From Candidatus Bathyarchaeota archaeon (GTDB taxonomy: Archaea > Thermoproteota > Bathyarchaeia > Bathyarchaeales > Bathycorpusculaceae), in assembly GCA_963772455.1 (NCBI GenBank), contig CAVYXJ010000015.1, positions 1-17,946 of the forward strand: DNA of 17,946 nt, written 5' to 3'. The notes under the pieces are model-generated. The model searched no databases, had not been told where the DNA came from, and saw nothing but the letters and a program-made list of their open reading frames with translations. This document shows positions 3,992 to 17,946 of the stretch, piece by piece. The translations under genes were made by a program, and so were the position numbers. Numbering within the stretch: position 1 is the first letter of the stretch; each line of letters begins with the position of its first letter.

Positions 3992-4205
3992 GTTACTTTC
4001 CCCCTCAGAAGACAAAACTTTACATCAATTTGAAAGATGTGGGCTTATATAACTATCGAAACTAACCACAAACTTGCTTACTTCATATTTTGATGAGATT
4101 AAGAATTTGGTTAATGTCGATCCTTTTTTCCATCAGCACCAACTAAAAAAAGTAAAGCATGATTTTAAGATACTAATAAGTCAGAATTAACTCTCCATAT
4201 ATTAG

Positions 4206-5489
4206 GTGTCAATGTTGGTTGTTGAAAAAGCTATGCATTTTTATTCTTGTCAATTGGCGACATCTAAATCTGTACAACAGCACAAACTCCGTAAGCGCAT
4301 AGCTTGGTTGTCAAATAAAGAGGGAAAAGGTAGAGAGTTCATCTCACTTTTCATACCTCCAAAGACTCGAATAGATGGGGTAATTGCCAACCTGAAGAAG
4401 GAATCTGATTTAACCATCAGAGAATCTGAGAGTGTTAAAGAACGCTTACAAAGTGCCTTTAAAGCTGTAATCCTTAATCTAAAACAGATTAAGGAAATTC
4501 CGGAAAACGGGTTAGCTCTATTTGCAGGATTTTTTCCAGTTAACGAATCTGAAAAAGAAGTCTTAAGCCTGGAAGAGATAGTTCCACCTGAACCGTTTAA
4601 CACCTATTTTTACTCAATTGGTGACCATTTTGACTTAATGCCACTTAGAGAAATCCTAAGAGACCAAAAAAACGTTGGAATACTCGCTTTAGATTCTAAA
4701 CAGGCTAGTTTTGGATTATTAAATGATGAACACATTGAAGTCTTAGAGAATATTTCTTCTGGAATTTCCGGAAAATCTGGAAAAGGCGGGTCGAGCCAAA
4801 GAAGATATGAAAGAGAACGCGACTCCTCAGTCGTAAACTTTTTTCACAGAATTGCGGAGCATGCAAACAAACAATTTATCAAGAAAAAAGTTAACATTTT
4901 GATAATAGGGGGACCTGGTCAAACTAAGAATGATTTTTTGAAGGGTGAATATCTTCATTATGAACTGAATAATATGCTTCTAAACATAGTTGACACTCAA
5001 TCCGCTGGCAAAGAAGCGCTAAAAGAGATTCTAAATAAATCATCAGAACTTCTTAAGAATATGTGTGGACCTGAAGAGAAAAGAATCGTTCAGAATCTAA
5101 TGATAGAACTGAATAAACAAAGTGGTTTAGCTACTTATGGCTTAGATTCAGTATTAGAAGCGCTTAGAAATGGTGAAGTGCAAATTGCTATAGTGACAGA
5201 TAGCACCGATATGGTTCTAAATGTTGCTGTATGCAAAAAATGTGGATTTTCAAAAACAAAGATCGCAAATAAAAAAACCCATGCCATAAAGGAAATGATT
5301 GAGAGGCCCTGTGAAAAATGCAATGGGGTTTCATATGAGGTTGGAGAAAAAGACATTGTTGATGTTTTAGAAGATATAGCTTCTAAAACTGATGCAAGCG
5401 TTGAGGTAATTTCATCCATTTCTGATGAAAAAGCATCACTCACAGCGCTGGGTGGCTTTGCAGCTCTTTTAAGATACAAATCAGGATAA
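4206..5489 (+). CDS. Divergent paralog of archaeal peptide chain release factor aRF1 (eRF1 domains 1-3 plus zinc ribbon), with GGS in place of GGQ
   Basis: EFISLFIPP, PENGLALFAG, VPPEP, GKSGKGGSSQRRYERER, LIIGGPGQTKNDF, LATYGLDSVLEAL, CKKC...CEKC and LGGFAALLRY. The start is uncertain (4206, 4233 or TTG 4254). Confidence 0.9.
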   Translation: MSMLVVEKAMHFYSCQLATSKSVQQHKLRKRIAWLSNKEGKGREFISLFIPPKTRIDGVIANLKKESDLTIRESESVKERLQSAFKAVILNLKQIKEIPENGLALFAGFFPVNESEKEVLSLEEIVPPEPFNTYFYSIGDHFDLMPLREILRDQKNVGILALDSKQASFGLLNDEHIEVLENISSGISGKSGKGGSSQRRYERERDSSVVNFFHRIAEHANKQFIKKKVNILIIGGPGQTKNDFLKGEYLHYELNNMLLNIVDTQSAGKEALKEILNKSSELLKNMCGPEEKRIVQNLMIELNKQSGLATYGLDSVLEALRNGEVQIAIVTDSTDMVLNVAVCKKCGFSKTKIANKKTHAIKEMIERPCEKCNGVSYEVGEKDIVDVLEDIASKTDASVEVISSISDEKASLTALGGFAALLRYKSG

Positions 5490-5788
5490 ACACCTTTTTT
5501 CAACAATTAAATTCAACAGATATAATTTTCAAAAGTTTTGAATCGTAAAAATATCTTTGTAAAAACTAAAAAACATAAGTTGCCATTCCGTTTTCAAAGC
5601 CGATGATTTTCTAATAACAATTGTTTCTTGAACTGCTTTGAATACTTGCATGATTTCATGCTTGTTTCAACCTATAATTTTAAATGAGATGAAATCATTC
5701 TTTTTGATAAAAAATTTACTTTCAAATCGTCAAAAAACTGCAACTCTTGACACGGAGATCAGAACGCTGAATGAAAGGAAAAGCCCGC

Positions 5789-6487
5789 ATGAATGATGAA
5801 GTAAAATTATTCTCAATAGGGGTAATGATCTTTATCCTTTTATTGGGACTTGCAGCTTATTTTTCTACAGAAGGCGTATCAGCTAAACAGATTCGCGTAG
5901 CTTGCGTGGGCGATAGTATTACTGAGGGAAGCGGTTATCCCTTCCAATTACATTTGATGCTTGGTTCAAACTACGTAGTTGGCAATTTTGGGGTAAGCGG
6001 ATCCACTGTTTCACTTGATTCTACGAAACCTTACATGAATGAAAGCAAATTCAAAGCAGCTTTGGATTTTAACCCTGACATTGTTGTAATTATGTTAGGA
6101 ACTAATGATGCAAACACAGAAGTCACTCCAAATGAAAATGACGTTGATACTGATTATTCAAAACTGGTTTCGGCATTCCAACAACTTGAAGGTAAACAAC
6201 TAATTTGGATCGCAAAGTCACCGCCGATCTTTCCCAACAATTCAAATTACAGCAACACAATTCTCACCACGAATATACTTCCACAAATTGACAATTTAGC
6301 TGATGAAATGAATTTACCTACAGTTGATATGTACAATATTCTCAGCGACCACTCGGAATATTTTGCTGACGGCATACATCCAACTCGTGATGGCGCCGCT
6401 TTGATTGCCACTAATGTTTACAATGCAATAACTTTGCCCGATGGGTCACCAGATATGTCTTTCTTTGATTCTGGTTACTCTGATTGA
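5789..6487 (+). CDS. Membrane-anchored SGNH/GDSL hydrolase (acetylesterase-like)
   Basis: Blocks GDSITEG, NFGVSG, MLGTND and DGIHP are present, with an N-terminal hydrophobic helix. The start could alternatively be 5771. Confidence 0.9.
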   Translation: MNDEVKLFSIGVMIFILLLGLAAYFSTEGVSAKQIRVACVGDSITEGSGYPFQLHLMLGSNYVVGNFGVSGSTVSLDSTKPYMNESKFKAALDFNPDIVVIMLGTNDANTEVTPNENDVDTDYSKLVSAFQQLEGKQLIWIAKSPPIFPNNSNYSNTILTTNILPQIDNLADEMNLPTVDMYNILSDHSEYFADGIHPTRDGAALIATNVYNAITLPDGSPDMSFFDSGYSD

Positions 6488-6544
6488 TATTGGTTGGAAA
6501 TTACTCTCTATTGCGGATATTACGCAAACTGTTTATAGTAAATC

Positions 6545-7645
6545 GTGAGTAAAGAAAGATACAGGTTATTGGGATCCAAAGTGAACCTGAAGAATGAAGA
6601 ATTAGTTCTTCCTGTAGATCTCATCCGTACTGTGGCCATAATTTTAGTTATCTTGCTTCATGCCTCAACACAGTCTTACTCGGAGGTTGATTTGATGTCG
6701 CCACAAGGAGTACAAATCTGGTGGGCATCAAATATCTATGATTCTCTAGCTCGAGTATGCATCCCTTTGTTTGTGATGTTGGCAGGTGCACTTTTGCTTC
6801 AACCCAGCAAAGTAGATGAACCACTAAAAATCTTCTTCAAAAAAAGGCTATATCGAATCGGACTGCCTTTCATCTTTTGGGGGGCAATATATTTTGCTTG
6901 GCGATTCTTCGTAAATGGCGAAGCATTAACACCTGACTCTTTTATTCAAGGACTGTTAAATGGACCTTACTATCAATTTTGGTTTCTCTACCTAATAATA
7001 GGATTATATCTCGTGACACCAATCCTGCGAGTACTAATAAAACATGCAGACCAAAAAATAATCAAATACTTAATTTCCATTTGGTTTTTAGGCACAGCTA
7101 TAATTCCAATATTAACATTGTTCGGATCTTTCAATTTGAATGCCAATGTCTTCCTTTTGACAGGATGGTTAGGCTATTTTGTTTTAGGCGCATACCTAAT
7201 AAAGGTACATTTGAGATCTTCAATTCTAATCACCGTTTTTGCAGCCGCTTTTCTCTGGACAATAATTGGCACGTACCTAATAATTGGCAATTTAGGTGAA
7301 ATATTTAATCAGTTTTTCTTATCAGGTTACAGCTTCAACATCATACTGGGTTCAACTGCATTATTCTTGCTCATGGCTTCTATCCCAGCCCCTAAAATAG
7401 AAAAAAGATTTCCAAATGGCAATCGAGTACTTAGGGTAATAAGTCAAAACACTTTGCCGATATTTCTATTCCATCCAATTGTACTGGAAACCTTACAGAA
7501 AGGTTACTTAGGATTTGCCATAAATATAACATCAATTAACCCAATTATAGAAATCCCACTTATCACTGCCCTCACTCTGCTCATCTGCCTCGCAATAATT
7601 GTTCCTTTAAAGAAAATACCTTATGTAAAAAGAATCATTGGTTGA
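6545..7645 (+). CDS. Acyltransferase family 3 (OafA/WecH-like) integral membrane O-acyltransferase
   Basis: DLIRTVAIILVILLH, CIPLFVMLAGALL, FFKKRLYRIGLPF, QFWFLY and IFLFHPI, with about 10 hydrophobic helices. The start could be GTG 6581. Confidence 0.9.
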   Translation: MSKERYRLLGSKVNLKNEELVLPVDLIRTVAIILVILLHASTQSYSEVDLMSPQGVQIWWASNIYDSLARVCIPLFVMLAGALLLQPSKVDEPLKIFFKKRLYRIGLPFIFWGAIYFAWRFFVNGEALTPDSFIQGLLNGPYYQFWFLYLIIGLYLVTPILRVLIKHADQKIIKYLISIWFLGTAIIPILTLFGSFNLNANVFLLTGWLGYFVLGAYLIKVHLRSSILITVFAAAFLWTIIGTYLIIGNLGEIFNQFFLSGYSFNIILGSTALFLLMASIPAPKIEKRFPNGNRVLRVISQNTLPIFLFHPIVLETLQKGYLGFAINITSINPIIEIPLITALTLLICLAIIVPLKKIPYVKRIIG

Positions 7646-7748
7646 AATAAAAAATTTTCAAGTAAAGTTCTACAATAAATTTCTGTTACTTTTCTAGCAA
7701 ACTATTTCTTGAACAAAGAGGGGCTAATCTAAGGAAAAAAGCTGTACC

Positions 7749-9224
7749 TTGAAAATAATTAAAGAACAAATCAAGTTGCAAACAAACGCATTTCGCGAAA
7801 AATTTGAAAGAAATAACTTGAAAACAATCTTAGCTGATAATTATCCTCTCTTAAGCATACTAATTGGCTACTTATTTGTAGCATTAACAATAGGACCGTT
7901 CTACAATAGTGATACTGCAATCGAATACAACGCTGTATCGGGAGTGTTGAAATATGGTTTGCCAAAACTGGATGACGGCTACATCATTAATCAACCCCCA
8001 TTGGGATTCTATTCTCAAGCCTTTTTCTTGAATATTTTTGGTTCTTCAATAAGTAATGGCACGTTCTTGGTCACCTTGTTTGGGCTTGGATGCATCGTCT
8101 TAGTATATGGAATTGCCAATACCGTGTACAATAAGACTACAGCTTTTTTCGCAGCTACCCTTTTTGCTTTTAGCCCATGGCATCTAATATTGTCTAGGAC
8201 TTTCCTAATTGATGTTCAATGTCTCTTCTTCAGTTTGTTTTCGCTATTTCTTGGAATATTTGCCGTCCGCAGAGATTCAATCAAGTTATTTGTAGGTTCA
8301 GGGATCATTTTCGCAATGGCTTTTAGCACAAAATTATATGCTGTGTTTATTCTTATCCCAATTTTAGCTTTCTTTTTCTTCTTTAGATCTGAAAAAATAA
8401 AACAAAAATTAATTTGGTTGGGTGCATTTTCCGCGCCAACATTTTTGTTTTCCTTTTTGTGGTATCAAACAATTGCGAAAGTTGGAATGGGCGCTATTAT
8501 TTTTCATACTGATTTTGCAGTTCATGAATCTAGCGGTATAGTTCCTTCTTACTTTTTTGTGAGCAATTTCCTTACTAGCTATGGTTTGGGCTGGTTATTT
8601 GTGGATGCAGCAATTCTGTCACTATTCCTATGTTTCACCCAAAAACGCTTATTTCGCAGATTTCTTGCGTTTGATATAATCAGCTTGTTAACTATAATTT
8701 GCGTAATAAGTGTGAACACTTTTTTGGGAGCAACCTTGAAACTTAATTCCCCTTATCTGACCGCGATAAAATATGATTATCAATCATTGCCTTTCTTTGC
8801 TTTCTTAGCGGGATCATTGATAACAAAAAGCATTTCTCTTATTAATTTAAGCAAGCTAAAGAAAAAAGTAACTCGTATAACCTATGTTTTTGCCGCTTCA
8901 ATTGGATTCATATTAGTGCCTCTTTCAATAGGAATCAACATGAGTTATGTGAATCTGTTTTCCACTTGGACCTATTTACTTTTCAAAGCAGACTCAAACC
9001 TTAAAGTAGGGTATTCATTTTTTAGCGATACTCCACTTGCTTTAAACAACGTTTTGTTTAATTTTCAATATTTAGGGTATGCATTAATGTTATCAGGAAT
9101 CGTATGGTTAAGCAGACATAAAATATCTTCATTACTAAAAACATTACATTTCAAAATCCATTTCAGTAAAATTTTATACAAAAACAAGTTACGAAATGAA
9201 GTTCAAAAAAAAATAAGTATTTAA
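7749..9224 (+). CDS. GT-C fold membrane glycosyltransferase (ArnT/PMT_2-like, GT39/GT83-related)
   Basis: An N-terminal DTAIEY acidic motif, NQPPLGFY, FSPWHLILSRTFLID and AFSTKLY, in a polytopic membrane protein. Confidence 0.8.
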   Translation: MKIIKEQIKLQTNAFREKFERNNLKTILADNYPLLSILIGYLFVALTIGPFYNSDTAIEYNAVSGVLKYGLPKLDDGYIINQPPLGFYSQAFFLNIFGSSISNGTFLVTLFGLGCIVLVYGIANTVYNKTTAFFAATLFAFSPWHLILSRTFLIDVQCLFFSLFSLFLGIFAVRRDSIKLFVGSGIIFAMAFSTKLYAVFILIPILAFFFFFRSEKIKQKLIWLGAFSAPTFLFSFLWYQTIAKVGMGAIIFHTDFAVHESSGIVPSYFFVSNFLTSYGLGWLFVDAAILSLFLCFTQKRLFRRFLAFDIISLLTIICVISVNTFLGATLKLNSPYLTAIKYDYQSLPFFAFLAGSLITKSISLINLSKLKKKVTRITYVFAASIGFILVPLSIGINMSYVNLFSTWTYLLFKADSNLKVGYSFFSDTPLALNNVLFNFQYLGYALMLSGIVWLSRHKISSLLKTLHFKIHFSKILYKNKLRNEVQKKISI

Positions 9225-9226
9225 GA

Positions 9227-9265
9227 GAAGAAGAAGAGTGAAAAATTTGCACTTCTTCTTCCTTT
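9227..9265 (+). terminator. Imperfect hairpin after the glycosyltransferase gene, possible terminator
   Basis: GAAGAAGAAGAGTG...CACTTCTTCTTC followed by CTTT, immediately after the stop at 9224. Confidence 0.35.
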
Positions 9266-9504
9266 AACAATCTTCTACCATTAACAGTTGCTTTGTATGA
9301 AGCCGAAATTTATGACCCTTTAATTGTTGAAAAACTCGAAAAGGCTTGATTCAACATGTTAGAATGGGGACAAATTACGATGCATCGGATTTTATGTATG
9401 CAAAGATCGCTCATGGCTTATCATCCCCCAAGTTAAGCCGTATGGCTATTTCTGGTAAAAACAAGTCTTATGTATTTGAGAGGCATACAAGAAAGTGATG
9501 AATT

Positions 9505-9876
9505 ATGCAAAACGACACAGAAACAAAAATTAAGCAAGACCTTTTGGCTGAAATTCAAAACTTAGAACAAAATTACATAGTAATTCAGGGTTTTATCGCT
9601 GGAAAAGAATATGAGGTTACAGTCATCGGATCAAGCCTTCAATCATTCAAAGACAGCTTAAGTAGAGCTAGCGCATTTGTCCTTGCATTATACAACTTTA
9701 AAGGCAAAAGAGTCAACATTCCATGGGAACCGCTTTTCACAAACTTGGATTATGCACTCGCGACTTTGTCAACTACTCCAAAGAAAGAAGCTGTCCAGGT
9801 AATCTTATCCATGGCTAAAGAACAGATTGAACAGGTATTATCATATTTCTCAGCGCTAAAAGAATCACTCAAATAA
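9505..9876 (+). CDS. Hypothetical alpha-helical protein, 123 aa
   Basis: Open frame with amphipathic helical composition and a GTGA ribosome-binding-like site upstream. No family recognised. Confidence 0.75.
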   Translation: MQNDTETKIKQDLLAEIQNLEQNYIVIQGFIAGKEYEVTVIGSSLQSFKDSLSRASAFVLALYNFKGKRVNIPWEPLFTNLDYALATLSTTPKKEAVQVILSMAKEQIEQVLSYFSALKESLK

Positions 9877-10055
9877 AATTTGAAACATAGCAATGCATAG
9901 AATTAATGCCTTTCTTTTTGATTTTTATGGTTTCTTTTTCTGTGGCTCAAATAGAATAGGTTTGCAAATTTCCTGTTGGATTCGAAAGCGGAGACTAGCG
10001 GTATTCAAAGGATGAAGAGTTAAGTATAACCCAAATCAAACATTTGTGAAGAAAG

Positions 10056-10415
10056 ATGGCATACTTACGTAACGAGAAAGAAAACCTCGAAGTATCATAT
10101 CCGCTGAAACAGATATGGGCTGCAATACCAGAAACCATCAAGATTTTGGAGTGGACGATAGAAGAGCAAGACGACGCAACCCACAAGGCTAAAATCAAAA
10201 CAAAGGGTGGTTTTTTAGCATACAATTCAATGCTTTACCTTGAAGCATCCGCAGTAGATGAGAACACTACTAGAATGTCTATTTATGCGGAAACACCAGT
10301 AACCACAATAACCTCAATTATTGATTTTGGCAGAACAAGAGACCGCATAGGTCAATTTATTGAAACATTAGGCAAGATAATGGAAAAGAAAGATAATCAA
10401 AAGAAAACAAGCTAA
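10056..10415 (+). CDS. Hypothetical protein, 119 aa (alpha/beta, C-terminal DFGRTRDRI motif)
   Basis: Protein-like composition, collinear with its neighbours. The DFG-x4-RI ending recalls DUF1499-like proteins (weak). Confidence 0.75.
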   Translation: MAYLRNEKENLEVSYPLKQIWAAIPETIKILEWTIEEQDDATHKAKIKTKGGFLAYNSMLYLEASAVDENTTRMSIYAETPVTTITSIIDFGRTRDRIGQFIETLGKIMEKKDNQKKTS

Positions 10416-10457
10416 TTAAGCAAAAAAACTAATAACAATAGTAAATGTTGATTACTT

Positions 10458-11423
10458 ATGATACGCATTCTCAACTTGGGCGACAATTCCGAAAGAACCG
10501 TAACTGATGAAGAACTAAAAGGATTAAACCTCACGAGTCAATGGCTGGAACTTGTTGACCCAACAGAAAACGAGTTGCGTTCAGTATCCGATTCAACACA
10601 GTTTCCTGTAACTTTTTTGAGATTACCCACAACTGAAGGATATGTTAATTTACGATTAGAACAAGATTACGGAATCATTAATTTCCTAGTTATGCAGGAC
10701 ATTGTATCAACCAAAAAAACACACCCCGTTGTCCTGGCTTTTTCGAAGAATTTGCTCGTAACCGTCGCAACCAAGGAAACTCAGAAAATCATTGACGTTG
10801 CTAAAGAACGAATGAGCAAAGCCAAAATAGACCCCCCATCTCACGTTATTTATTTTATCCTTGATGAAATAGTTTCCTCTCATTATATTCAAATTGAAAA
10901 ACTAGAACACCTCACCGAAAAAATGGAAGAAGAAGTCGTTGAGAAAACCTCCGCTGACACACTAAAGAAAATTTTCAAACTTAAATCAAACATGGTTAGC
11001 TTTAACAAACTTCTTTGGTATGAACGAGGGCTAATTTTCAATATTAGAAAATTCGAGGAAATCCACTTGTCTCCAAAAGCCCGAGCCTTGTTTGACACTA
11101 CACATGAGGATTTGACTAGGCAAATAGACATAGTTGAAACTTATAGAGAAATACTTTCAGACGCTATAAATGTGCATTTATCAGCAATTTCAAACAAAAT
11201 TAATTTCTCAATAAAAGCTTTAACAGTCGTCATATTCTACTTAACAATTGTAACTACAATTACTTCTTTTCCAAACACAGTCGCCACCTTCTTTGGTATT
11301 GCGCAGTTTGGAAACACAAACATCCTAATAATTACCACAGCATTACTGCTATCGATTGTTTTGCCTCTCATTTGGCTTTGGAAAAAGAGTTGGCTTACCT
11401 CAAAGAGACTCGATTATCAATAA
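10458..11423 (+). CDS. CorA/ZntB-family divalent cation transporter-like protein with non-canonical signature (GIA instead of GMN)
   Basis: WLELVDPTENEL, LLVTV, YFILDEIV, IFKLKSNM, REILSDAINVHLSAISNKIN-x2-IKALT, two C-terminal TM helices and a KKSWL tail. Confidence 0.85.
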   Translation: MIRILNLGDNSERTVTDEELKGLNLTSQWLELVDPTENELRSVSDSTQFPVTFLRLPTTEGYVNLRLEQDYGIINFLVMQDIVSTKKTHPVVLAFSKNLLVTVATKETQKIIDVAKERMSKAKIDPPSHVIYFILDEIVSSHYIQIEKLEHLTEKMEEEVVEKTSADTLKKIFKLKSNMVSFNKLLWYERGLIFNIRKFEEIHLSPKARALFDTTHEDLTRQIDIVETYREILSDAINVHLSAISNKINFSIKALTVVIFYLTIVTTITSFPNTVATFFGIAQFGNTNILIITTALLLSIVLPLIWLWKKSWLTSKRLDYQ

Positions 11424-11543
11424 CTCCAGAAGATTTGTAATGAACCACGCACAATTTCAACATCCAAACAGCTCTCCAACTTTAGAACCGCTGGAAGTTA
11501 TTTTGATTACTTCGGTTAAACTGAATAATACATCGGGAATTAT

Positions 11544-11969
11544 ATGAGCAAAAAACAACCACCTATAATTATTTACAAAGGTAGAAGCTTGGGCATCGTC
11601 ATTTTGGTTGTTTCACAGTTAATTATCGGGGCTATCCACGCCTTCTTCGGGTTACTTCTTCTTGTATACGAAAACTTTTCGTTCCTTCCAACAACAGCAG
11701 TTTATGACATTTACACTTTTGTCTTTGGGTTGTTGGCTTTGGTTTTCGCAGTTCTTATTTGGGAAGGCAAAAAGATTGGGTGGATTGGCACAATTGCAGT
11801 TTCGTTATTTGTGATTGCTGCAGATTCTTTGACGCTTCTGGATTTGCCAAGTATTCCAGGGATTCCAAAGTTTGCGGGATTTACTGAAATAGCATATAGT
11901 GTTTTGGTTGTTGGTTATTTGCTTCAACCCAGAATAAGAAAAAAATATTTTGCATCCAAGAAAAATTAA
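11544..11969 (+). CDS. Hypothetical 4-TM membrane protein, 141 aa
   Basis: Four hydrophobic segments with RSLGIVIL, GKKIGW and YLLQPRIRKKYF, a pattern typical of small archaeal membrane proteins. Confidence 0.8.
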   Translation: MSKKQPPIIIYKGRSLGIVILVVSQLIIGAIHAFFGLLLLVYENFSFLPTTAVYDIYTFVFGLLALVFAVLIWEGKKIGWIGTIAVSLFVIAADSLTLLDLPSIPGIPKFAGFTEIAYSVLVVGYLLQPRIRKKYFASKKN

Positions 11970-11998
11970 AGCTATAAAGATATTAGAAAAACTCTAAT

Positions 11999-12664
11999 TT
12001 ATCTCAGGGTTGCATTGTTGGGGTAACCTCTGCTTTCCCAGAAACCCAGATAATCAGGGTTATCTGTTAATTCGATGTTGGTAATCCATTTCGCCCATTT
12101 GTAGCCATATTGGCTTTCAGCGACGAGTTCGAATGGGAAGCCGCGTTCAGGTGGAAGAGTCAAACCATTCATCTTGTAAGCAATAATGATGTTTTTGTCT
12201 GTGATGTAATCGATCGGAAGCTCAGTTGAGTAGCCATCGTACGCGTAAAAGATCACTGCCACCGCACTCGAGTTGACGCCTGCTTCTTTTAGCAAATCGT
12301 TTACAAGAAATCCTTCCCAAAGAATCTTAGCCGACCAACCTTCAACACAATAAAGGGTTACGACTTTTTCATATTTCTGGAATTTGCTAAGTATCTCGTC
12401 GTAAGTGTAATTCACTGTTTTGTTAACCAATCCAGTTATTGACAAGCGATAAGTGGAGATGTCGACTTGTTGGGGTCCCTTAATCGAGTTTTCCCTAAAG
12501 TCTCCGATTGAAGAAAGGTTTTCGCCTTGGTAATCGCGGATTTCTCCGGGATACAACCTTTTAGGCTGATTCACTCCATAGTAGACGGCTAAGAAAACAA
12601 GCACTAACAACATTATTGTTAAAGAAACCGCAATTAATTTTTGATAGCGATTTTTTTTCTCCAT
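11999..12664 (-). CDS. Membrane-anchored molybdopterin-dependent oxidoreductase (sulfite oxidase/MsrP-like family)
   Basis: YRLSITGLV, TLYCVEGW (Mo-ligand Cys), DGYSTELP, MNGLTLPPERGFP, GYKWAKWIT and GFWESRGY. Confidence 0.9.
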   Translation of the reverse strand: MEKKNRYQKLIAVSLTIMLLVLVFLAVYYGVNQPKRLYPGEIRDYQGENLSSIGDFRENSIKGPQQVDISTYRLSITGLVNKTVNYTYDEILSKFQKYEKVVTLYCVEGWSAKILWEGFLVNDLLKEAGVNSSAVAVIFYAYDGYSTELPIDYITDKNIIIAYKMNGLTLPPERGFPFELVAESQYGYKWAKWITNIELTDNPDYLGFWESRGYPNNATLR

Positions 12665-12799
12665 TCTTATTCAACTCAAAAAAGTAGGAACCCTTTAATC
12701 CACTGAATGGTTGTACATCATACTTAAAAAACCCAATCCTTATTCAGAGCATTTACTCACCAAAAAATCAAAACCTGATTCGCAAGATAACAAATAATT

Positions 12800-13207
12800 T
12801 TAAACTTTTTTTTGAAGAGTACTCAAATACGTAGGCAATCCTTCGATGCATTGAATTTCTCTACCTGCAAGTGCGCGCAGAGCACGCCAAAACTTCAGGT
12901 TAACCAAGATTTTTTTCCATTCCAGACTCTCCTGGAGATGCTTAGTACCTTCTTGTCCTCGTCGATCAAAATCAAGCAATAGAATAACTTCTCTTGAACA
13001 TAGCCTTTGGATTTCTACAGTTGCTTCAAGAAAAGATTTACCTCCAGTCTTCACCATTAAAATCGGGCCTTTAGCACCCAATTCTTGAAGAGCGTCAGCA
13101 TCTTTCTTGCCTTCAACAATAAGGGGAGTACCTTCCAATGATTTTTCTATCAACTGTGTTATGATTTGCTCTATTTTCTCTACTTTTTCTTTACGATGTG
13201 TAGACAA
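12800..13207 (-). CDS. Stand-alone Toprim-domain protein (small primase/RNase M5-like)
   Basis: LIVEGKKD and LLLDFDRRG Toprim motifs. It starts 5 nt after the tyrS stop. Confidence 0.88.
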   Translation of the reverse strand: MSTHRKEKVEKIEQIITQLIEKSLEGTPLIVEGKKDADALQELGAKGPILMVKTGGKSFLEATVEIQRLCSREVILLLDFDRRGQEGTKHLQESLEWKKILVNLKFWRALRALAGREIQCIEGLPTYLSTLQKKV

Positions 13208-13212
13208 AACAG

Positions 13213-14302
13213 TTACCGGGTAATCTTTGCGTTGCGAACAGTCTCTAAGCAGCCTTTTGCTTCTTTGTTATTTTCAAAGTAACGTCTAACTGGTTCAAGG
13301 ATACTTGCAAGTTCAGTTGCAACACCATTTTTAAGATCCATCGGATGCAATTTGCCATCTGAATAGGCTACCTCAAGTTCTTGGAAACTCTGAAACTCAG
13401 CATTTCCGCCGAATTTAGCTGGACGCTCTATTCTGAAGACTGGTTTTTCCCTAAAAATAATGTATTTGCAAATGTCCATTATAGGATTGTACTTTACAAT
13501 TCTTTCTGGACAGAACGCTTTACTCATCTTTTGCTTGATTTCCTCTGGTGAATCATAAATGAAGACGCAGGTGTCTGGTTTGCTCTTAGACATTTTTGCT
13601 GAAGCAACTGCTTCTCTTTCTTGTCCTTCGGGAATTGGCCAAATTCCAGGTTTAGCTAAGCCCTGTAACAAATGATGATGCACGCAAACGGGTTTCCAGC
13701 AACCGATTTTCTCTCCGATTTCTCTTCCAACCATGTTTGCTTTGCGTTGATCCATGCCCAGTTGGCAAATTTTGACTTTCATATGGAAGATATCCGCCAC
13801 CTGCATAGGTGTATAGAGATAGTCAGAAACGTAGTGGGCTTCACCCTCTTTTCTACCGGCGATTTCAAGAGTACGCGTTGTTCGAGCTAAAGTCAGGTTC
13901 TTGGCGATTATCACTGTTTTTGCCCAATAGTCAATGTCTTTGTAGAGTTCATCCGAATAAATGAATTCGACTTTATCTCCTGGCACCCCAAGGGCGAGCC
14001 AGGAATATCTAAAGAGGTCTGCGGCTTTGCGGATAAGGGTTAAGTCGCCACCAAGTTTGTTGTTTAACCATGCATGCCAAGTTGCCAAGAACGCTTTGAA
14101 GTGAATTCCAGCTTCCGCAAAGTCTTTCATTTTATAGGCGCAGATAACGCCTGTTCCTAAATGTGCCTAGACCAGAAGGTTCCCAACCGTTATAGGCGAT
14201 GGGATGTTCTTCAATTTCAAGAAGCGCTCTCAAATCCTCTGTAGTTACTAATTCTTCAGTTGGTGGTCTACAAATTAAATCAATTTTCTTTTCAATGTCC
14301 AA
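13213..14302 (-). CDS. tyrS: Tyrosyl-tRNA synthetase (archaeal type), 362 aa after correcting a one-base frameshift at 14166-14167
   Basis: A TTG start at 14302 (GGTG upstream) gives MDIEKKIDLICRPPTEELVT...AYNGWEPSGL. The +1 frame continues AHLGTGVICAYKMKDF (HIGH-like motif), then YTPMQVADIF, GMDQRKAN and KMSKS. Confidence 0.93.
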
Positions 14303-14537
14303 ATTGGCACCAAACCTTAGTGGTTATAGGTTTAATGCATGTGATGAACTTAAAAATTCGCTTTCTACTCTAAATTCGCTAGCTGAATTCTGCCTCTTTA
14401 AGATAAAACAACAAAAAAACATTTTTTTAAAGAAAAAAGTTTGCTATGGGCTCTAGGTAAATATAATTGTAATAGAATTCCCAAAATAATTCTTAATTAG
14501 CGAGAGCATTCCATAACTAGAAGAGGCTATGTGACAG

Positions 14538-15032
14538 GTGAACAATATGGGAAAGAACGATGTGAATAAGGATGAGTCGCCTTCACAGCTTATAGACGCG
14601 CGAATTCAGGAACTAGGCGATTGGCGCGGAGAAACGTTAGCCAAAATGCGCCAGCTTATCAAGGAGGCGGATCCAGAGGTAGTTGAAGAGTGGAAATGGG
14701 TGAAACCTACAAATCCTGGTACTCCAGTCTGGTCCCACAACGGCGGCATTTGCACAGGAGAGACCTACAAAAATTCGGTAAAACTCACATTCTTCAAGGG
14801 TGCTTCGCTAGAGGACCCCTCTCACCTGTTCAACCAACCTGGGACCGTCAGGCGCGCCATCGACATCCATGAAGGCGAGAAGATTGACGAGGAGGCCTTC
14901 AAGATCCTCATTCGTACCTCTGTGAAACTGAACGTTTCCAAATGCAAACTGGAAAAACTACAATCCGAAAGTCGAATAAAAACCTCAATTGAGGAAGAAG
15001 TGAAACTGATTAGAGAGGATAGAGAACGCTGA
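14538..15032 (+). CDS. DUF1801 (YdhG-like) domain fused to a VapB-antitoxin-like C-terminal tail
   Basis: SPSQLIDARIQELGDWRGETL, EADPEVVEEWKW, PVWSHNGGICTGETYK and RRAIDIHEG are typical of DUF1801. The tail IEEEVKLIREDRER is typical of archaeal antitoxin ends. The start may be ATG 14547. Confidence 0.8.
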   Translation: MNNMGKNDVNKDESPSQLIDARIQELGDWRGETLAKMRQLIKEADPEVVEEWKWVKPTNPGTPVWSHNGGICTGETYKNSVKLTFFKGASLEDPSHLFNQPGTVRRAIDIHEGEKIDEEAFKILIRTSVKLNVSKCKLEKLQSESRIKTSIEEEVKLIREDRER

Positions 15033-15421
15033 TAGTTGCCGACAGTATTTTCATAGTTGAAGGTCTCCTTAAGAATAGAGAACTACTTGCAGATGAACAG
15101 ATTGTTGCTCCCGAGTTAGTTGCTTACGAAGTTACAAACGCCATTTGGAAACATGAACATCTTTTGAAAGATTTAGAAAACGGTAAACAGTACTTATCAA
15201 TTTTCTACGGTTTAATGGAAGCTGGAAAAATAAAGACACTAATTCCAAACGAAGAGTTGATGCAGGAATCATATTCAATCGCAAAAAGGCAAGGAATAAC
15301 ATTATACGACGCAGTTTTTGTTTCTCTGGCAATTAAATTAGGATTGACCTTAAAAAGTTACGACAAAGTTCAAATTCGAGCCCTAAAATCTGAGAATAAC
15401 CAATCTTACGATTCTCAGTGA
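15029..15421 (+). CDS. vapC: PIN-domain toxin (VapC family), 130 aa, probable CTG start overlapping the upstream TGA
   Basis: The frame extends upstream of the ORF-track start at 15164: LIVADSIFIVEGLL...APELVAYEVTNAIWK...TLYDAVFVSLA...LKSYDK. An in-frame TAG at 15020-15022 bounds it, and AGAGGA lies upstream. Confidence 0.85.
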   Translation: MIVADSIFIVEGLLKNRELLADEQIVAPELVAYEVTNAIWKHEHLLKDLENGKQYLSIFYGLMEAGKIKTLIPNEELMQESYSIAKRQGITLYDAVFVSLAIKLGLTLKSYDKVQIRALKSENNQSYDSQ

Positions 15422-15515
15422 AAAAGGTTTCAGCCTTGGCAGCGAAATAACCGGTTAAAGAAGAAAAGATTGGATGGTTAAATTAAGATTTAACCAAAAA
15501 AACTTTGCCGGGAGT

Positions 15516-16106
15516 TTATTTTTCTTGCAACACCTGAAGCTTAGCCTTGTATTCTTCTTCAGATATTTCTCCCTTAATAAACCTCAATTTCAACTGAACT
15601 AACGGATCTTCAACAGATTGAGCTTGAACAGAAGTATTCTGCCTAAAAATCATCTCCTTAGGCTTATTAAACTCCCAATCCGCCATACCAAGAAGCTCAC
15701 CTTTACGCTTCATTGAAACCGGCTCAACCGCAATGCCATTATACGCAATTTCTAAAGCATCAATAAAATTAGCCATATCCCCGCGATTTACTCTCTCCAC
15801 CGTAAAAATAGCCCCGTCCTCCATTTTAACCGTAACTTCTCCCCATACAACTGCGCCTCTATGCGCACTTATTTGAAGTACCTTCTGCAAAGGCAATGAT
15901 TTGAAGTCGTATCTACCCAAATGTTTTTCATCAAAATAGATAAGGCGAATGTTCGTAAGTACTATGTAATTTGTTCGTTCAGCTATAACAAAGCTGTTGA
16001 GAGAACTGATAACTTCTTCGCCAGGAGAAAGATTCTTTTTTAAACCGCCTGGTAACTTATCAACTAAACTTTTACTAGAAGGTTTCTCACTCACTTTTTT
16101 CACCAT
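15516..16106 (-). CDS. Bacterial-type PH-domain protein with C-terminal SHOCT domain
   Basis: LSPGEEVI...YIVLTNIRLIYF...WGEVTV indicates the PH domain, and DPLVQLKLRFIKGEISEEEYKAKLQVL indicates SHOCT. Confidence 0.85.
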   Translation of the reverse strand: MVKKVSEKPSSKSLVDKLPGGLKKNLSPGEEVISSLNSFVIAERTNYIVLTNIRLIYFDEKHLGRYDFKSLPLQKVLQISAHRGAVVWGEVTVKMEDGAIFTVERVNRGDMANFIDALEIAYNGIAVEPVSMKRKGELLGMADWEFNKPKEMIFRQNTSVQAQSVEDPLVQLKLRFIKGEISEEEYKAKLQVLQEK

Positions 16107-16311
16107 CTTACAAGATTAATGGTATTTTATTCCTGTATTAAAAAGTATGCAGATCACAAAAATATTGGGTCCCTTCGAACGCGCTTACTCGTTTTAAATG
16201 TCTGCCTGTAACTCTCTGTTGGCACGCGTTTGTAACTGTCGTTCTACAGTCACAAATCGTTAAGTATACTTGAAAAGACAATAAATCAGTTATATAAGAG
16301 GTGATTAGCCA

Positions 16312-16431
16312 ATGAAGTTTTTCCGTAATATCAAAGCTGGTTTAGCTGGATGGCTCTGGTATGCTATCGTAGTAGTAGTATTAGTTATAGTTCTTATTGT
16401 TGCTTTGAGATTCCTTTTTAACTTGATATAA
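16312..16431 (+). CDS. Unannotated 39-aa single-TM peptide MKFFRNIKAGLAGWLWYAIVVVVLVIVLIVALRFLFNLI
   Basis: Strong GAGGTGA ribosome-binding site at 16298-16304, ATG at 16312, TAA at 16429-16431, with a basic N-terminus and a long hydrophobic helix. Confidence 0.75.
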   Translation: MKFFRNIKAGLAGWLWYAIVVVVLVIVLIVALRFLFNLI

Positions 16432-16483
16432 GTCAAGCTAAAAAAGAGTTAGCAAGAGTAAACCTGCACCAGCCATATTTTCT

Positions 16484-16690
16484 CACCACGATTATTTTAA
16501 AAGAAATCAAGCGTTCGCTTTTGATTTTAACTTCCACAATCAACTTAGTCTTCTTAGGGTGAGAAACCACTGCGTTAAATCCTTATTTCTTTATTTGCCG
16601 ACAAGGTGGCGTAACGGCGGTGAAAAAGTCCATAACTACTCTCAAACTTTGAAATGCAAGAGGTAAGCCGCAGAAAAATTCTTCTTGATG
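16484..16690 (-). pseudogene. Decayed IS110-family transposase fragment (N-terminal DEDD domain)
   Basis: The minus-strand frame reads HQEEFFCGLPLAFQSLRVVMDFFTAVTPPCRQIKK*GFNAVVSHPKKTKLIVEVKIKSERL, resembling the IS110 pattern V-x-ME...GF-x-VVV-x-HP-x2-T-x2-IA-x2-KIK-[ST]-D-x2-D. There is an internal TAA at 16583-16585. Confidence 0.65.
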
Positions 16691-16731
16691 TAACCAATTA
16701 TGTCTTAACCTAAGCGAGAGTCACGATAATT

Positions 16732-17505
16732 ATGTCTGAAAAAAAGACACCAACAGTCTTGGCTATCTCAGGTTCTCTAAGAAGCCCCTCTTTTACTGAG
16801 AAAATGTTAGATAACTTGCTTGAAGGAATGGGTGAAGTGGAAGTTCACAAGTTTTATCCTCATAAAATGAAGATTGGACCTTGCACAAGCTGTTGGAGCT
16901 GCTGGCAAGGAAAAAACAAAGGTAAATGTGTCCAGAAAGACGATTTTCAATCAATATACGATATTTACAAAAAGTGTGATTACTTTATCATCGCTGCACC
17001 AGTATACGTTTTTGGCTTTCCGGCAACTGTCAAAAACGTAATAGATAGATTCTTTATAAACTTGGAACCTTCCCAGATTTTAATGGAGAACGGGATAACT
17101 AATCACCCACAACGGCATGCCTCTAAAGCAAAAGGTGTCTTAGTTTCATCTTGTGGTTTTCCAGATATGGAGAATTTTACTATAATGAGTGAACATTTTA
17201 AGAAGTTTATGATGCACTTTGGATTAACTTGGGCAGGAGAAGCTCTAATACCATCAGCTGGGGCAGCAAACATTCCTCATTTGCTTGATGGCAACATCGA
17301 GGCAGTTAGACAAGCTGGTGCCGAATTGATTAATGGCATAATATCTTCTGACACAATGCGCGTTATTAGTGACGTTCCAATATCTAAAAACGATTATAGG
17401 GAAATGACTAATGCCAGCTTCAAAGGAGGACTATCTGGAAAAGCAAAGACTTTTGCCATCGGAATCAAAGCAATAAGAAATAAAGGAAAGAAAAAACAGT
17501 CTTGA
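16732..17505 (+). CDS. Iron-sulfur flavoprotein / multimeric flavodoxin (NADPH-dependent FMN reductase family)
   Basis: VLAISGSLR, CTSCWSC-x8-C-x3-DD, IIAAPVY and VKNVIDR. Confidence 0.9.
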   Translation: MSEKKTPTVLAISGSLRSPSFTEKMLDNLLEGMGEVEVHKFYPHKMKIGPCTSCWSCWQGKNKGKCVQKDDFQSIYDIYKKCDYFIIAAPVYVFGFPATVKNVIDRFFINLEPSQILMENGITNHPQRHASKAKGVLVSSCGFPDMENFTIMSEHFKKFMMHFGLTWAGEALIPSAGAANIPHLLDGNIEAVRQAGAELINGIISSDTMRVISDVPISKNDYREMTNASFKGGLSGKAKTFAIGIKAIRNKGKKKQS

Positions 17506-17585
17506 TGATTCTTCCAACGGCATATCTAATCTTCAAAGAGTATTGAACTCAAACTCTCCACGAAAAACGTCATTTCTTGAGTTAA

Positions 17586-17864
17586 CTATTTTTTCAATTC
17601 AATTAGCATTTTTAACACCAATTTGAGTGCAGAGTCATAGCCACTGCAGTATTCTTTGCTGGAGTCTTTGTCCGCATAGATTTGCTGCACAATTTCTTTT
17701 CCAATGCCTTCATTAGTTAGCTGGATTGAGCCCTCTTTTAGCCATATCAGAGCATCAATATACCCGTGTTCTGAGTCTGAAAGATCATCTGTATTAGATG
17801 ATTCTGCTTTCTGCCTGATTATTTCCTCAATCTTTTCTTTTAACTCGTTCTCAACCTTACTCAC
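17586..17864 (-). CDS. Hypothetical acidic protein, 92 aa, with an internal GY-x2-AL repeat
   Basis: GTG start with GGTGA upstream, and repeats SEHGYIDALIWL / YCSGYDSALKLV. Confidence 0.7.
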   Translation of the reverse strand: MSKVENELKEKIEEIIRQKAESSNTDDLSDSEHGYIDALIWLKEGSIQLTNEGIGKEIVQQIYADKDSSKEYCSGYDSALKLVLKMLIELKK

Positions 17865-17946
17865 TTCTTCTCACCAATTCGATTACTTGTTTGTTATAGA
17901 GTTAAGTAGATATCGGCTGCTAGTTTCTTCAAACATAGTTTTAGAC

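Follow-up and report, generated by a model that had tools for sequence, protein, structure and literature searches.

The window analysed here is the whole of a 17,946-bp contig (G000:C15) belonging to a genome bin of a Candidatus Bathyarchaeota archaeon. This source bin, G000, holds 2.45 Mb in 24 contigs at 39.7% GC. On its forward strand the contig carries a gene in which a DUF1801 (YdhG-like) domain runs in frame into the C-terminal tail of a VapB-like antitoxin, followed by an overlapping gene for a PIN-domain toxin of the VapC type. The locus is a genuine recombinant gene, probably a recent one, in a genome of the Bathyarchaeota type. An earlier note, made from the letters of the sequence, had described it as a chimeric toxin-antitoxin (TA) module. 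The features that it described are confirmed at their positions, and its interpretation is supported in part. The module consists of the following parts.

14547 to 14943, forward strand: DUF1801 (YdhG-like) part of the fusion (PF08818), with the final two usual codons and the stop codon gone.

14941 to 14944, forward strand: recombination junction, with a 2-bp microhomology (A14942 and T14943 are common to both parents).

14943 to 15032, forward strand: antitoxin tail of 29 codons (C136 to R164) and a TGA stop, equivalent to residues 46-74 of a 74-residue VapB-like antitoxin.

15029 to 15421, forward strand: PIN (VapC-type) toxin gene, recognized by Pfam as PIN, in a frame that is open from 15023.

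The open reading frame (ORF) of the fusion extends from 14538 to 15032 and encodes 164 residues if read from the GTG at 14538. The ATG at 14547 is the likelier start. It stands behind GGTGA (14537-14541) and yields 161 residues, which is the form found in the protein collection, and homologues begin at the equivalent ATG. Pfam places DUF1801 (PF08818) at residues 30-128, with an E value of 8.7e-21 and 74.6 bits against a cut-off of 27.2.

The fusion has matches in more than 8000 proteins. Among the 120 best ones, which were listed, the 119 other than the protein itself show 81-92% amino acid identity and are 132-165 residues long, mostly 134-146, and they cover only 79-84% of the query. All 12 aligned homologues end in VKLNxS(K/T)S(R/Q), and the window's protein continues from there for another 29 residues, so that the earlier note was right in saying that it runs past the usual end of DUF1801. 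The stand-alone form of about 134 residues, ending in VKLNxSKSR, is therefore absent here: two codons and the stop were lost and 29 residues gained.

The composition of the gene changes along its length. The DUF1801 part (14547-14941) has 50.6% GC overall and 59% at third codon positions (GC3), a GC content reached by just 0.54% of 12,190 windows of 395 nucleotides (nt) taken from the genome. The tail has 37% GC and the PIN gene 35%, with a GC3 of 31% each. The 60-nt counts in which this contrast had first been noticed (31/60, 36/60 and 21/60) are exact on recount.

A structure model of the fusion protein shows a DUF1801 fold, a low-confidence hinge at residues 131-138 and a helical tail, with a mean predicted local distance difference test score (pLDDT) of 66.5. 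Its fold resembles YdhG-like chains weakly (9t2w_A, with a probability of 0.95 and an E value of 0.16, and 2kl4). Foldseek found nothing for it in the PDB at E <= 0.001, and NCBIfam contains no match for either the fusion or the PIN protein.

The origin of the tail can be found in related genomes. In each of four congeneric genomes the orthologue of the PIN gene (83-96% identical) is preceded by an intact ORF for an antitoxin of 74 residues (MTMK.VSVRISEEEK...DELLCKLEKLQSESRIKTSIEEEVKLIREDRER). The 29 residues of the tail are identical, without exception, to residues 46-74 of the antitoxin in one of them (G011), the closest intact orthologue; the two genes differ there at four synonymous and no non-synonymous positions. 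The tail is thus the C-terminus of an antitoxin, as had been proposed. A scan of species-representative genomes found 15 loci of this kind in metagenome-assembled genomes of Candidatus Bathyarchaeota/Bathyarchaeia, probably including the four congeneric ones, and the full antitoxin of 74 residues is present in all 15. The antitoxin belongs to a small family: among 1.84 billion clusters, 53 representative ones match it at E <= 0.001. Their C-terminus reads ..LIREDR.R nearly throughout, so the ..IREDR.. ending that had been named as common in archaeal antitoxins holds for this family. No second antitoxin copy able to act in trans is present in G000, nor is a second close PIN.

The junction between the two parents can be placed to within a few nucleotides. 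Searches with blastn split the region: 14942-15428 matches TA loci (94.7% nucleotide identity to locus L006), and a stretch that begins at 14483 or 14530 and ends at 14941 or 14943 matches DUF1801 loci at up to 90%. The DUF1801 part by itself is 82-90% identical to the 11 closest loci of the genus and 65-72% identical to six more distant ones, in alignments that end between 14933 and 14943. Compared separately, then, the DUF1801 half leads to stand-alone DUF1801 loci and the tail half to intact pairs of VapB-like antitoxin and PIN toxin. The DUF1801 parent reads ...TCC AAR TCC CGC TAG, the TA parent reads ...TTG CTA TGC AAA CTG G, and the window reads TCC AAA TGC AAA CTG G. The loss amounts to two codons and the stop of DUF1801, and to the promoter region and codons 1-45 of the antitoxin.

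The missing part of the antitoxin is probably a domain like the ribbon-helix-helix (RHH) type. The NCBIfam family VapB_Sulfo (NF050799), which describes VapB of the Sulfolobales, matches the intact antitoxin co-linearly over its full length at E 0.001, below the cut-off. Other sub-threshold matches are to Pfam DUF6290 (E 0.0066) and to PDB profiles of the CopG family (E 0.24-0.9). In an AlphaFold model of the antitoxin (pLDDT 79) an unstructured N-terminus is followed by helices at residues 12-20, 24-54 and 61-73. Foldseek returned no PDB match to this model at E <= 0.001. In a structure scan independent of Foldseek, covering 48,161 PDB chains, all four chains with Z scores of at least 5 are TA antitoxins of the RHH type: ParD (5.9), B. 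subtilis MazE (5.3), a CopG/Arc/MetJ antidote (5.2) and KacA (5.1). Isolated RHH domains align to residues 1-43, 2-47 and 3-41 of the model with root-mean-square deviations of 1.4-1.8.

These models lend moderate support to an RHH-like N-terminal domain, the Z scores being modest (below 8). Because the isolated domains align to these residues, the break after residue 45 would lie at the end of the RHH-like domain. In the window this putative DNA-binding domain is absent, its 45 codons having been replaced in frame by DUF1801 as the earlier note had claimed, and the C-terminal tail remains, upstream of the toxin gene and overlapping it. An alignment made with MAFFT places the RHH region against the C-terminus of DUF1801. 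This was judged coincidental, as blastn shows no DNA homology there.

Repeats around the junction were considered as well. There are exactly two copies of the 10-mer GTGAAACTGA, one at 14922 and one at 15000, so the repeat pointed out in the earlier note is real. It has no role in the junction: one copy is found 11-20 nt to the left of the break and the other 57-66 nt to its right, both are parental and retained, and they are native to the parents in most relatives. The same 1.26 kb holds seven families of direct repeats of at least 10 nt. A perfect inverted repeat of 11 nt is also present, with the left arm GTTTCCAAATG (14934-14944) spanning the fusion junction and the right arm CATTTGGAAAC (15142-15152) lying in the conserved AIWKH codons of PIN. 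This repeat may be due to chance, as five inverted pairs of at least 10 nt are found in the 1.26 kb.

A join of this kind could in principle be produced in the computer, if a contig with DUF1801 and a contig with a TA pair had been assembled or binned together. At 92-95% identity the contig duplicates part of another one in its bin, the contamination of the bin is 3.4%, and a core gene on the contig has a single-base frameshift. In addition, none of the public sequencing runs holds half or more of the words sampled from the window. Contigs of four public runs were compared with the window, regions without contig cover being uninformative. One run labelled as soil metagenome (X2) provides a 250-nt contig, record 11, which covers 14893-15142 with no gaps and three mismatches; it spans the junction, with 49 nt to the left of it and 201 nt to the right. 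This independent sequence, different at three positions, answers the call for a check of sequence across the junction. Furthermore, the parents share only 2 bp at the join, far less than a graph assembler needs for a mis-join, and both flanks run co-linear with those on the sister contig C5. An artefact is thus largely refuted by the X2 contig, and such an origin of the junction is very improbable.

Runs X1 and X5 contain the intact form of the antitoxin, and their loose ends before 14942 read the ancestral ...GAGTTGCT. Contigs of other runs over the DUF1801 part have no indels.

The toxin gene itself appears to be intact, with no stop codons or frameshifts and with all catalytic residues kept. 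Pfam recognizes the PIN domain (PF01850) at E 2.3e-6, with 28.7 bits against a cut-off of 23.6, and a profile built from 13 PIN proteins finds the solved structures of PAE0151 (E 1.1e-27) and PAE2754 (E 1.8e-11). The acidic residues that the earlier note had seen in the toxin are D5, E34, D94 and D112, which are invariant in the 13 aligned PIN proteins, the window's included. The ratio of non-synonymous to synonymous substitution rates (dN/dS) is 0.08-0.17 between the window's PIN and its orthologues and 0.08-0.27 among the orthologues. As the first 25 codons are included in these values, the N-terminus of PIN must be translated.

The start of the toxin gene is unusual. The TGA of the fusion (15030-15032) does overlap the PIN frame, as had been noted, but no ATG, GTG or TTG is found there. 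Instead CTG 15029 overlaps the stop codon (CTGA) and ATA 15032 comes next, the first canonical start being TTG 15164. The missing start is not a lesion of this locus, because 14 of the 15 orthologous loci share it: their sequence at the antitoxin stop is CTGA in 13, ATGA in one and CTCATAG in one, with ATA kept in all. Paralogous pairs have ATAA at this point, except for one with TAATC. Throughout the loci compared (L006-L021 and L067-L081) the codon that overlaps the antitoxin stop is thus a near-cognate one (CTG, ATA or ATC). A Shine-Dalgarno-like GAGGA (15015-15019) lies 9-12 nt upstream of the toxin start, inside the conserved REDR codons.

This pattern suggests that the PIN genes of this group of Bathyarchaeota may be translated by obligatory termination-reinitiation at non-canonical starts. 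A haloarchaeal vapBC pair with a GTGA overlap and a weak start is described as translationally coupled (PMC13488343). By analogy, the mechanism here is likely to be termination-reinitiation at a near-cognate codon, as an extreme form of that coupling.

The DUF1801 part is foreign and mobile, as judged from its high GC content, its patchy occurrence and its position in cassettes elsewhere, and the earlier note's reading of it as an acquired gene fits these features. The gene, which is unusually conserved (81-92% amino acid identity among the 119 other matches listed), is found in 28 of 81 genomes of the genus (G000 included), sometimes with 2-6 matches per genome. Among the copies considered (loci L026-L044; G089:C6, C19, C16, G092:C29), several are fragmentary or have stop codons. 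In related genomes the gene can be bounded by a short motif, of which the window has one copy.

14486 to 14500, forward strand: ATAATTCTTAATTAG, cassette-boundary motif and promoter-like element at the left edge of the variable segment.

The homology between the window and contig C5 stops exactly at 14500, the end of ATAATTCTTAATTAG. There are six exact copies of this motif in G000, often paired at distances of 0.95-1.85 kb. The repeat is seen at 45510 and 46463 on C5, 144998 and 146238 on C7, 11990 and 12942 on C9, and 23894 and 25734 (minus strand) on C14; it also occurs in loci L026, L027, L029, L030 and L036. The motif sits in the middle of a palindrome, imperfect and about 65-70 nt long (cATAATTATC...TTACCAAC-ATAATTCTTAATTAG-...GATAATTAT), with inverted outer boxes of 9 nt. 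The length of the palindrome can also be put at about 62-70 nt, with a z of -2.06 for the complete copy.

The motif stands on both sides of DUF1801, in the orientation of the gene, in 5 of 19 loci of the genus, and in none of 19 TA loci. A 22-nt form of it, searched with up to two mismatches, is present in 18 of 61 genomes, namely G000 and 17 of 36 congeners, and in none of 24 genomes of other genera; a reversed control gave none. On contig C5 a nitroreductase gene sits between two copies of the motif, and the same cassette is found again on C9. Cassettes with DUF1801, nitroreductase and other genes were seen, and one copy of the motif lies 37 nt before ilvC. The cassette in the window has the regular 5' edge and lacks its 3' end and the downstream motif.

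Gene arrays of this type are reminiscent of integron attC arrays and of dif/pdif modules, in which unrelated genes also lie between copies of one imperfectly palindromic repeat, here of about 65-70 nt. As in the integron and dif types, the copies have the same orientation, are 0.9-1.9 kb apart and occupy variable spots. They differ from integron arrays in that no integrase adjoins them (the three PF00589 matches in G000 all lie away from the motif arrays) and in that the point of exchange is at the centre of the repeat. The repeat has no exact fit to the attC core consensus, RYYYAAC/GTTRRRY. It may be a recombination site, similar to attC or a dif module; it may equally well be a promoter or operator that the cassettes share, with homologous recombination taking place there. 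If it does mark the limits of exchangeable cassettes, this genus-specific repeat of Bathyarchaeota would be a novelty in its own right.

Taken together, these features can be explained by a simple history. A mobile DUF1801 cassette with a regular left boundary would have been inserted at a variable spot between a tRNA-synthetase gene and a bPH/SHOCT gene, upstream of a resident TA operon. A deletion would then have run from the 3' end of the cassette into the antitoxin gene. A deletion is the simplest form of such an illegitimate join with a 2-bp microhomology, and it would lead from 8 nt before the DUF1801 stop to antitoxin codon 46. It would have removed the promoter and operator of the TA operon together with the RHH-like domain for dimerisation and DNA binding, and kept the whole tail that follows this domain, the Shine-Dalgarno-like site of the toxin and the PIN gene.

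The order of these events is inferred only, because relatives offered no usable synteny: in their genomes the sequence that lies past the tRNA-synthetase gene has no match to the island or to the right flank, and thus does not indicate which gene was resident. The TA loci of G011 and G029 stand elsewhere in those genomes.

After the deletion, the joined DUF1801-tail protein would be expressed from the cassette's own promoter and ribosome-binding site. Ribosomes that finish at the TGA would restart on the overlapping CTG or ATA, so that toxin would be made only if the fusion is translated. The grafted linear tail would still bind the PIN RNase and block it, and autoregulation through binding of an operator would be lost. 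There is a somewhat better than even case that the gene is such a recent accidental deletion fusion, still neutralising its toxin and deprived of its autoregulation. No new role in sensing or defence need be implied, and the in-frame join may be due to chance.

Binding of the tail to the toxin was addressed by predicting their complex. With PIN and fusion residues 125-164 the prediction reached a score of 0.48, and the best of three controls 0.00. At least 97% of the contacts are common to the runs, and the pLDDT of the partner is at least 77, with alignments made by the authors. Of 157 solved complexes, 116 came up to the mark set for such predictions, as did 2 of 215 mismatched pairs; only 18 of those 157 did so at scores up to 0.60, together with both of the passing mismatches. 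The pass may also be memory of solved VapBC complexes. The prediction is therefore weak support, from models, for a fusion tail that binds PIN. An engineered fusion of SUMO to the C-terminus of Phd is reported to counteract its toxin in vivo (PMC10440598).

The fusion could also be real and yet a dead remnant, left by a deletion that was neutral or did slight harm and was in frame by chance, with a toxin that is unmade or inactive, a tail that has no role and a locus in decay. This is a lesser but serious possibility, and several observations that tell against a still-functional fusion speak for it. An in-frame join has a prior of one in three by chance. Nor is the frame in itself evidence of selection, because an out-of-frame join would probably silence both parts and stay viable: if the coupling is strict, ribosomes would reach the toxin start only when the ORF upstream is in frame. 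The PIN gene lacks a canonical start, and its one unique non-synonymous change, S7I, lies two residues after the catalytic D5. The three mismatches of the X2 allele to the window are non-synonymous without exception (E to A in the tail; I/S and V/I in PIN), which fits relaxed selection better than constraint, errors being possible at a contig depth of about 3. In 2 of the 15 orthologous loci (L076 and L081) PIN is truncated behind an intact antitoxin, a sign of toxin decay in the family.

The surroundings and the rarity of the fusion point in the same direction. The neighbouring tRNA-synthetase gene, of an essential type, is frameshifted, and the contig, as a near copy of part of C5, may be a duplicate in decay, may come from a second strain or may reflect an error-prone assembly. 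Apart from this contig, the fusion is seen only in the one 250-nt X2 contig. A pattern for the junction matched 0 stretches in metagenome_contigs and 0 in genome_contigs, so that recurrence in other genomes, which the earlier note had suggested looking for, was not found. A search with residues 125-164 for proteins of 90-287 residues in 5.8 billion clusters returned the window's own protein alone. The weakness of the binding prediction and the modest quality of the fusion model count against the functional reading too, as does the finding that no RNA run among the public runs holds the stretch.

Decay is in turn opposed by the state of the genes. Compared with 13 orthologues, the tail has one unique synonymous and no unique non-synonymous change, and PIN has two synonymous changes besides S7I; these numbers are within range, and no excess of unique changes appears against the 13-15 orthologues. 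Stop codons and frameshifts are lacking and the catalytic residues are complete, and a non-canonical start is normal in intact orthologues, which have dN/dS values of 0.08-0.27. The junction is common to two diverged alleles and has therefore persisted for some time.

Beside an accidental fusion that still neutralises its toxin, a selected new role can be considered. Retention or expression of the cassette may have become tied to the toxin as a form of addiction, or DUF1801 may serve as a sensor of a ligand or of stress that gates release of the PIN RNase. The break at a domain boundary with the complete tail kept, the persistence of the junction in two alleles and the biology of TA systems and cassettes, which makes coupling conceivable, are all compatible with this. 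On the other hand, the fusion does not recur among 53 representative relatives or in the 5.8 billion clusters, PADLOC found no families at E <= 0.01 for the fusion, PIN or the intact antitoxin, and no sign of positive or purifying selection after the fusion is apparent. DUF1801 is not known to sense ligands. A selected role is accordingly unlikely. Equally doubtful is its fullest form, a working module in which the cassette gene captured the VapBC tail and toxin, so that loss or silencing of the cassette frees the PIN RNase or release of the toxin follows an iron or redox cue. If true, it would mean cassette addiction without a DNA-binding antitoxin, or a YdhG-like domain that makes toxin release responsive to a cue. 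The only role proposed is that of B. subtilis YdhG as a frataxin-like protein or iron chaperone, and DUF1801 is related to YdhG-like and frataxin-like folds (PMC10855754).

Besides the cassette arrays, three known systems can be compared with the locus. The first is VapBC, with an RHH-type VapB (NF050799) and PIN partners such as PAE0151 and PAE2754. Pairing of PIN with RHH is described as a principal TA pairing (PMC2701414). The window shares with VapBC a PIN toxin with four acidic residues behind a small overlapping ORF with a putatively neutralising C-terminal tail, and in 15 related genomes the module is canonical, with a 74-residue antitoxin and PIN. With haloarchaeal vapBC1 it shares a weak start coupled by overlap (PMC13488343). 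Unlike VapBC, the window has DUF1801 in place of the antitoxin's N-terminal domain for DNA binding and dimerisation and of its promoter, and its toxin starts with CTG or ATA, not ATG or GTG. The locus would thus work like a VapBC pair whose first gene lacks the defining N-terminal DNA-binding feature.

The second comparison is with modular antitoxins that act by linear neutralisation, a model that fits the locus, and with engineered grafts, as in SUMO::Phd-C and Panacea (PanA) (Ernits et al. 2023, PMC10440598). As described there, a short neutralising element is carried on an unrelated scaffold, antitoxins with domains that do not bind DNA are known from Panacea, and fusion or exchange of this kind is called a plausible evolutionary path. 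The window differs from those grafts in being a natural fusion with both parents at nucleotide resolution, though a single instance known here from sequence, and in its DUF1801 scaffold, which is unreported as an antitoxin partner. A fusion of DUF1801 to an antitoxin was not found in the literature searched.

The third is the stand-alone DUF1801 or YdhG-like protein (B. subtilis YdhG/Fra, PDB 2OC6; 2KL4; 9T2W), which the DUF1801 part resembles by the Pfam score and the amino acid identities given above. Here the differences are the two missing codons, the added tail and a toxin gene that replaces the 3' end of the cassette and the next motif.

The modularity of antitoxins is generally accepted, and engineered proteins with grafted neutralising tails work. 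To our knowledge, natural intermediates with both parents identifiable have seldom been seen. In the present case the donor cassette, the recipient operon, the break point and a second allele are all visible, which makes the locus a rare natural snapshot of part-swapping in antitoxins. It is a well-resolved natural intermediate, seen essentially once; modular antitoxins were already known and the DUF1801 scaffold is new. The locus can serve as a test case for a VapB tail that controls a toxin from an unrelated scaffold, for a TA pair without autoregulation, and for strict coupling at a near-cognate start. Even if it is only a decaying accident, it documents the erosion of TA systems at variable sites.

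Longer relatives of the antitoxin were examined as candidates for a second fusion. P0153, P0154 and P0166 have no Pfam domain, P0162 is a read-through from antitoxin to PIN, and none of the 53 representative relatives joins a foreign domain to the tail. In P0162, a metagenomic ORF of 182 residues, the antitoxin runs into the PIN domain through a change of frame near its end; either the read-through from antitoxin to toxin is natural or an indel error has produced it.

The remaining features of the locus are its flanks and a short segment next to the right one.

13213 to 14302, reverse strand: tyrosyl/tryptophanyl-tRNA synthetase-type gene, left flank (Pfam tRNA-synt_1b, E 6.3e-29).

15429 to 15456, forward strand: 28 nt of unassigned origin, between the end of the TA homology (15428) and the conserved right flank (15457 onward).

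15516 to 16106, reverse strand: gene with bPH_3 and SHOCT domains (Pfam), right flank, conserved and adjoining the variable segment.

Neither the genome nor the loci collected from relatives contain another match to the 28 nt. Rfam gave no matches in the window or the sister locus. A scan for sigma-70 promoters and terminators found no more than in shuffled sequences, with a model that is ill-suited to archaea.

Nearly the whole contig is co-linear with part of C5 (35022-49852), which corresponds to 4033-14500 and 15457-17916 of the window at 92-95% identity. Between these flanks C5 has 1870 bp with the nitroreductase gene, and the window has 956 bp with the fusion and PIN. Strain heterogeneity or a large diverged duplication would account for this near copy; the contig may stem from a second strain within the bin, be a diverged duplicate or bear sequencing errors.

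In the left flank, the class I (W/Y type) tRNA-synthetase gene is split by one extra G into pieces of 56 and 305 residues, while the copy on C5 is intact with 362 residues. The extra G is seen near 14130-14170, where the window reads CTAGGCAC and C5 reads CTAGCAC. This could be a pseudogene within a duplicated segment, variation between strains or an error of sequencing. In the right flank, the bPH_3/SHOCT gene has copies at 95-96% identity on C5 and C12, the one on C12 (96%) being the third.

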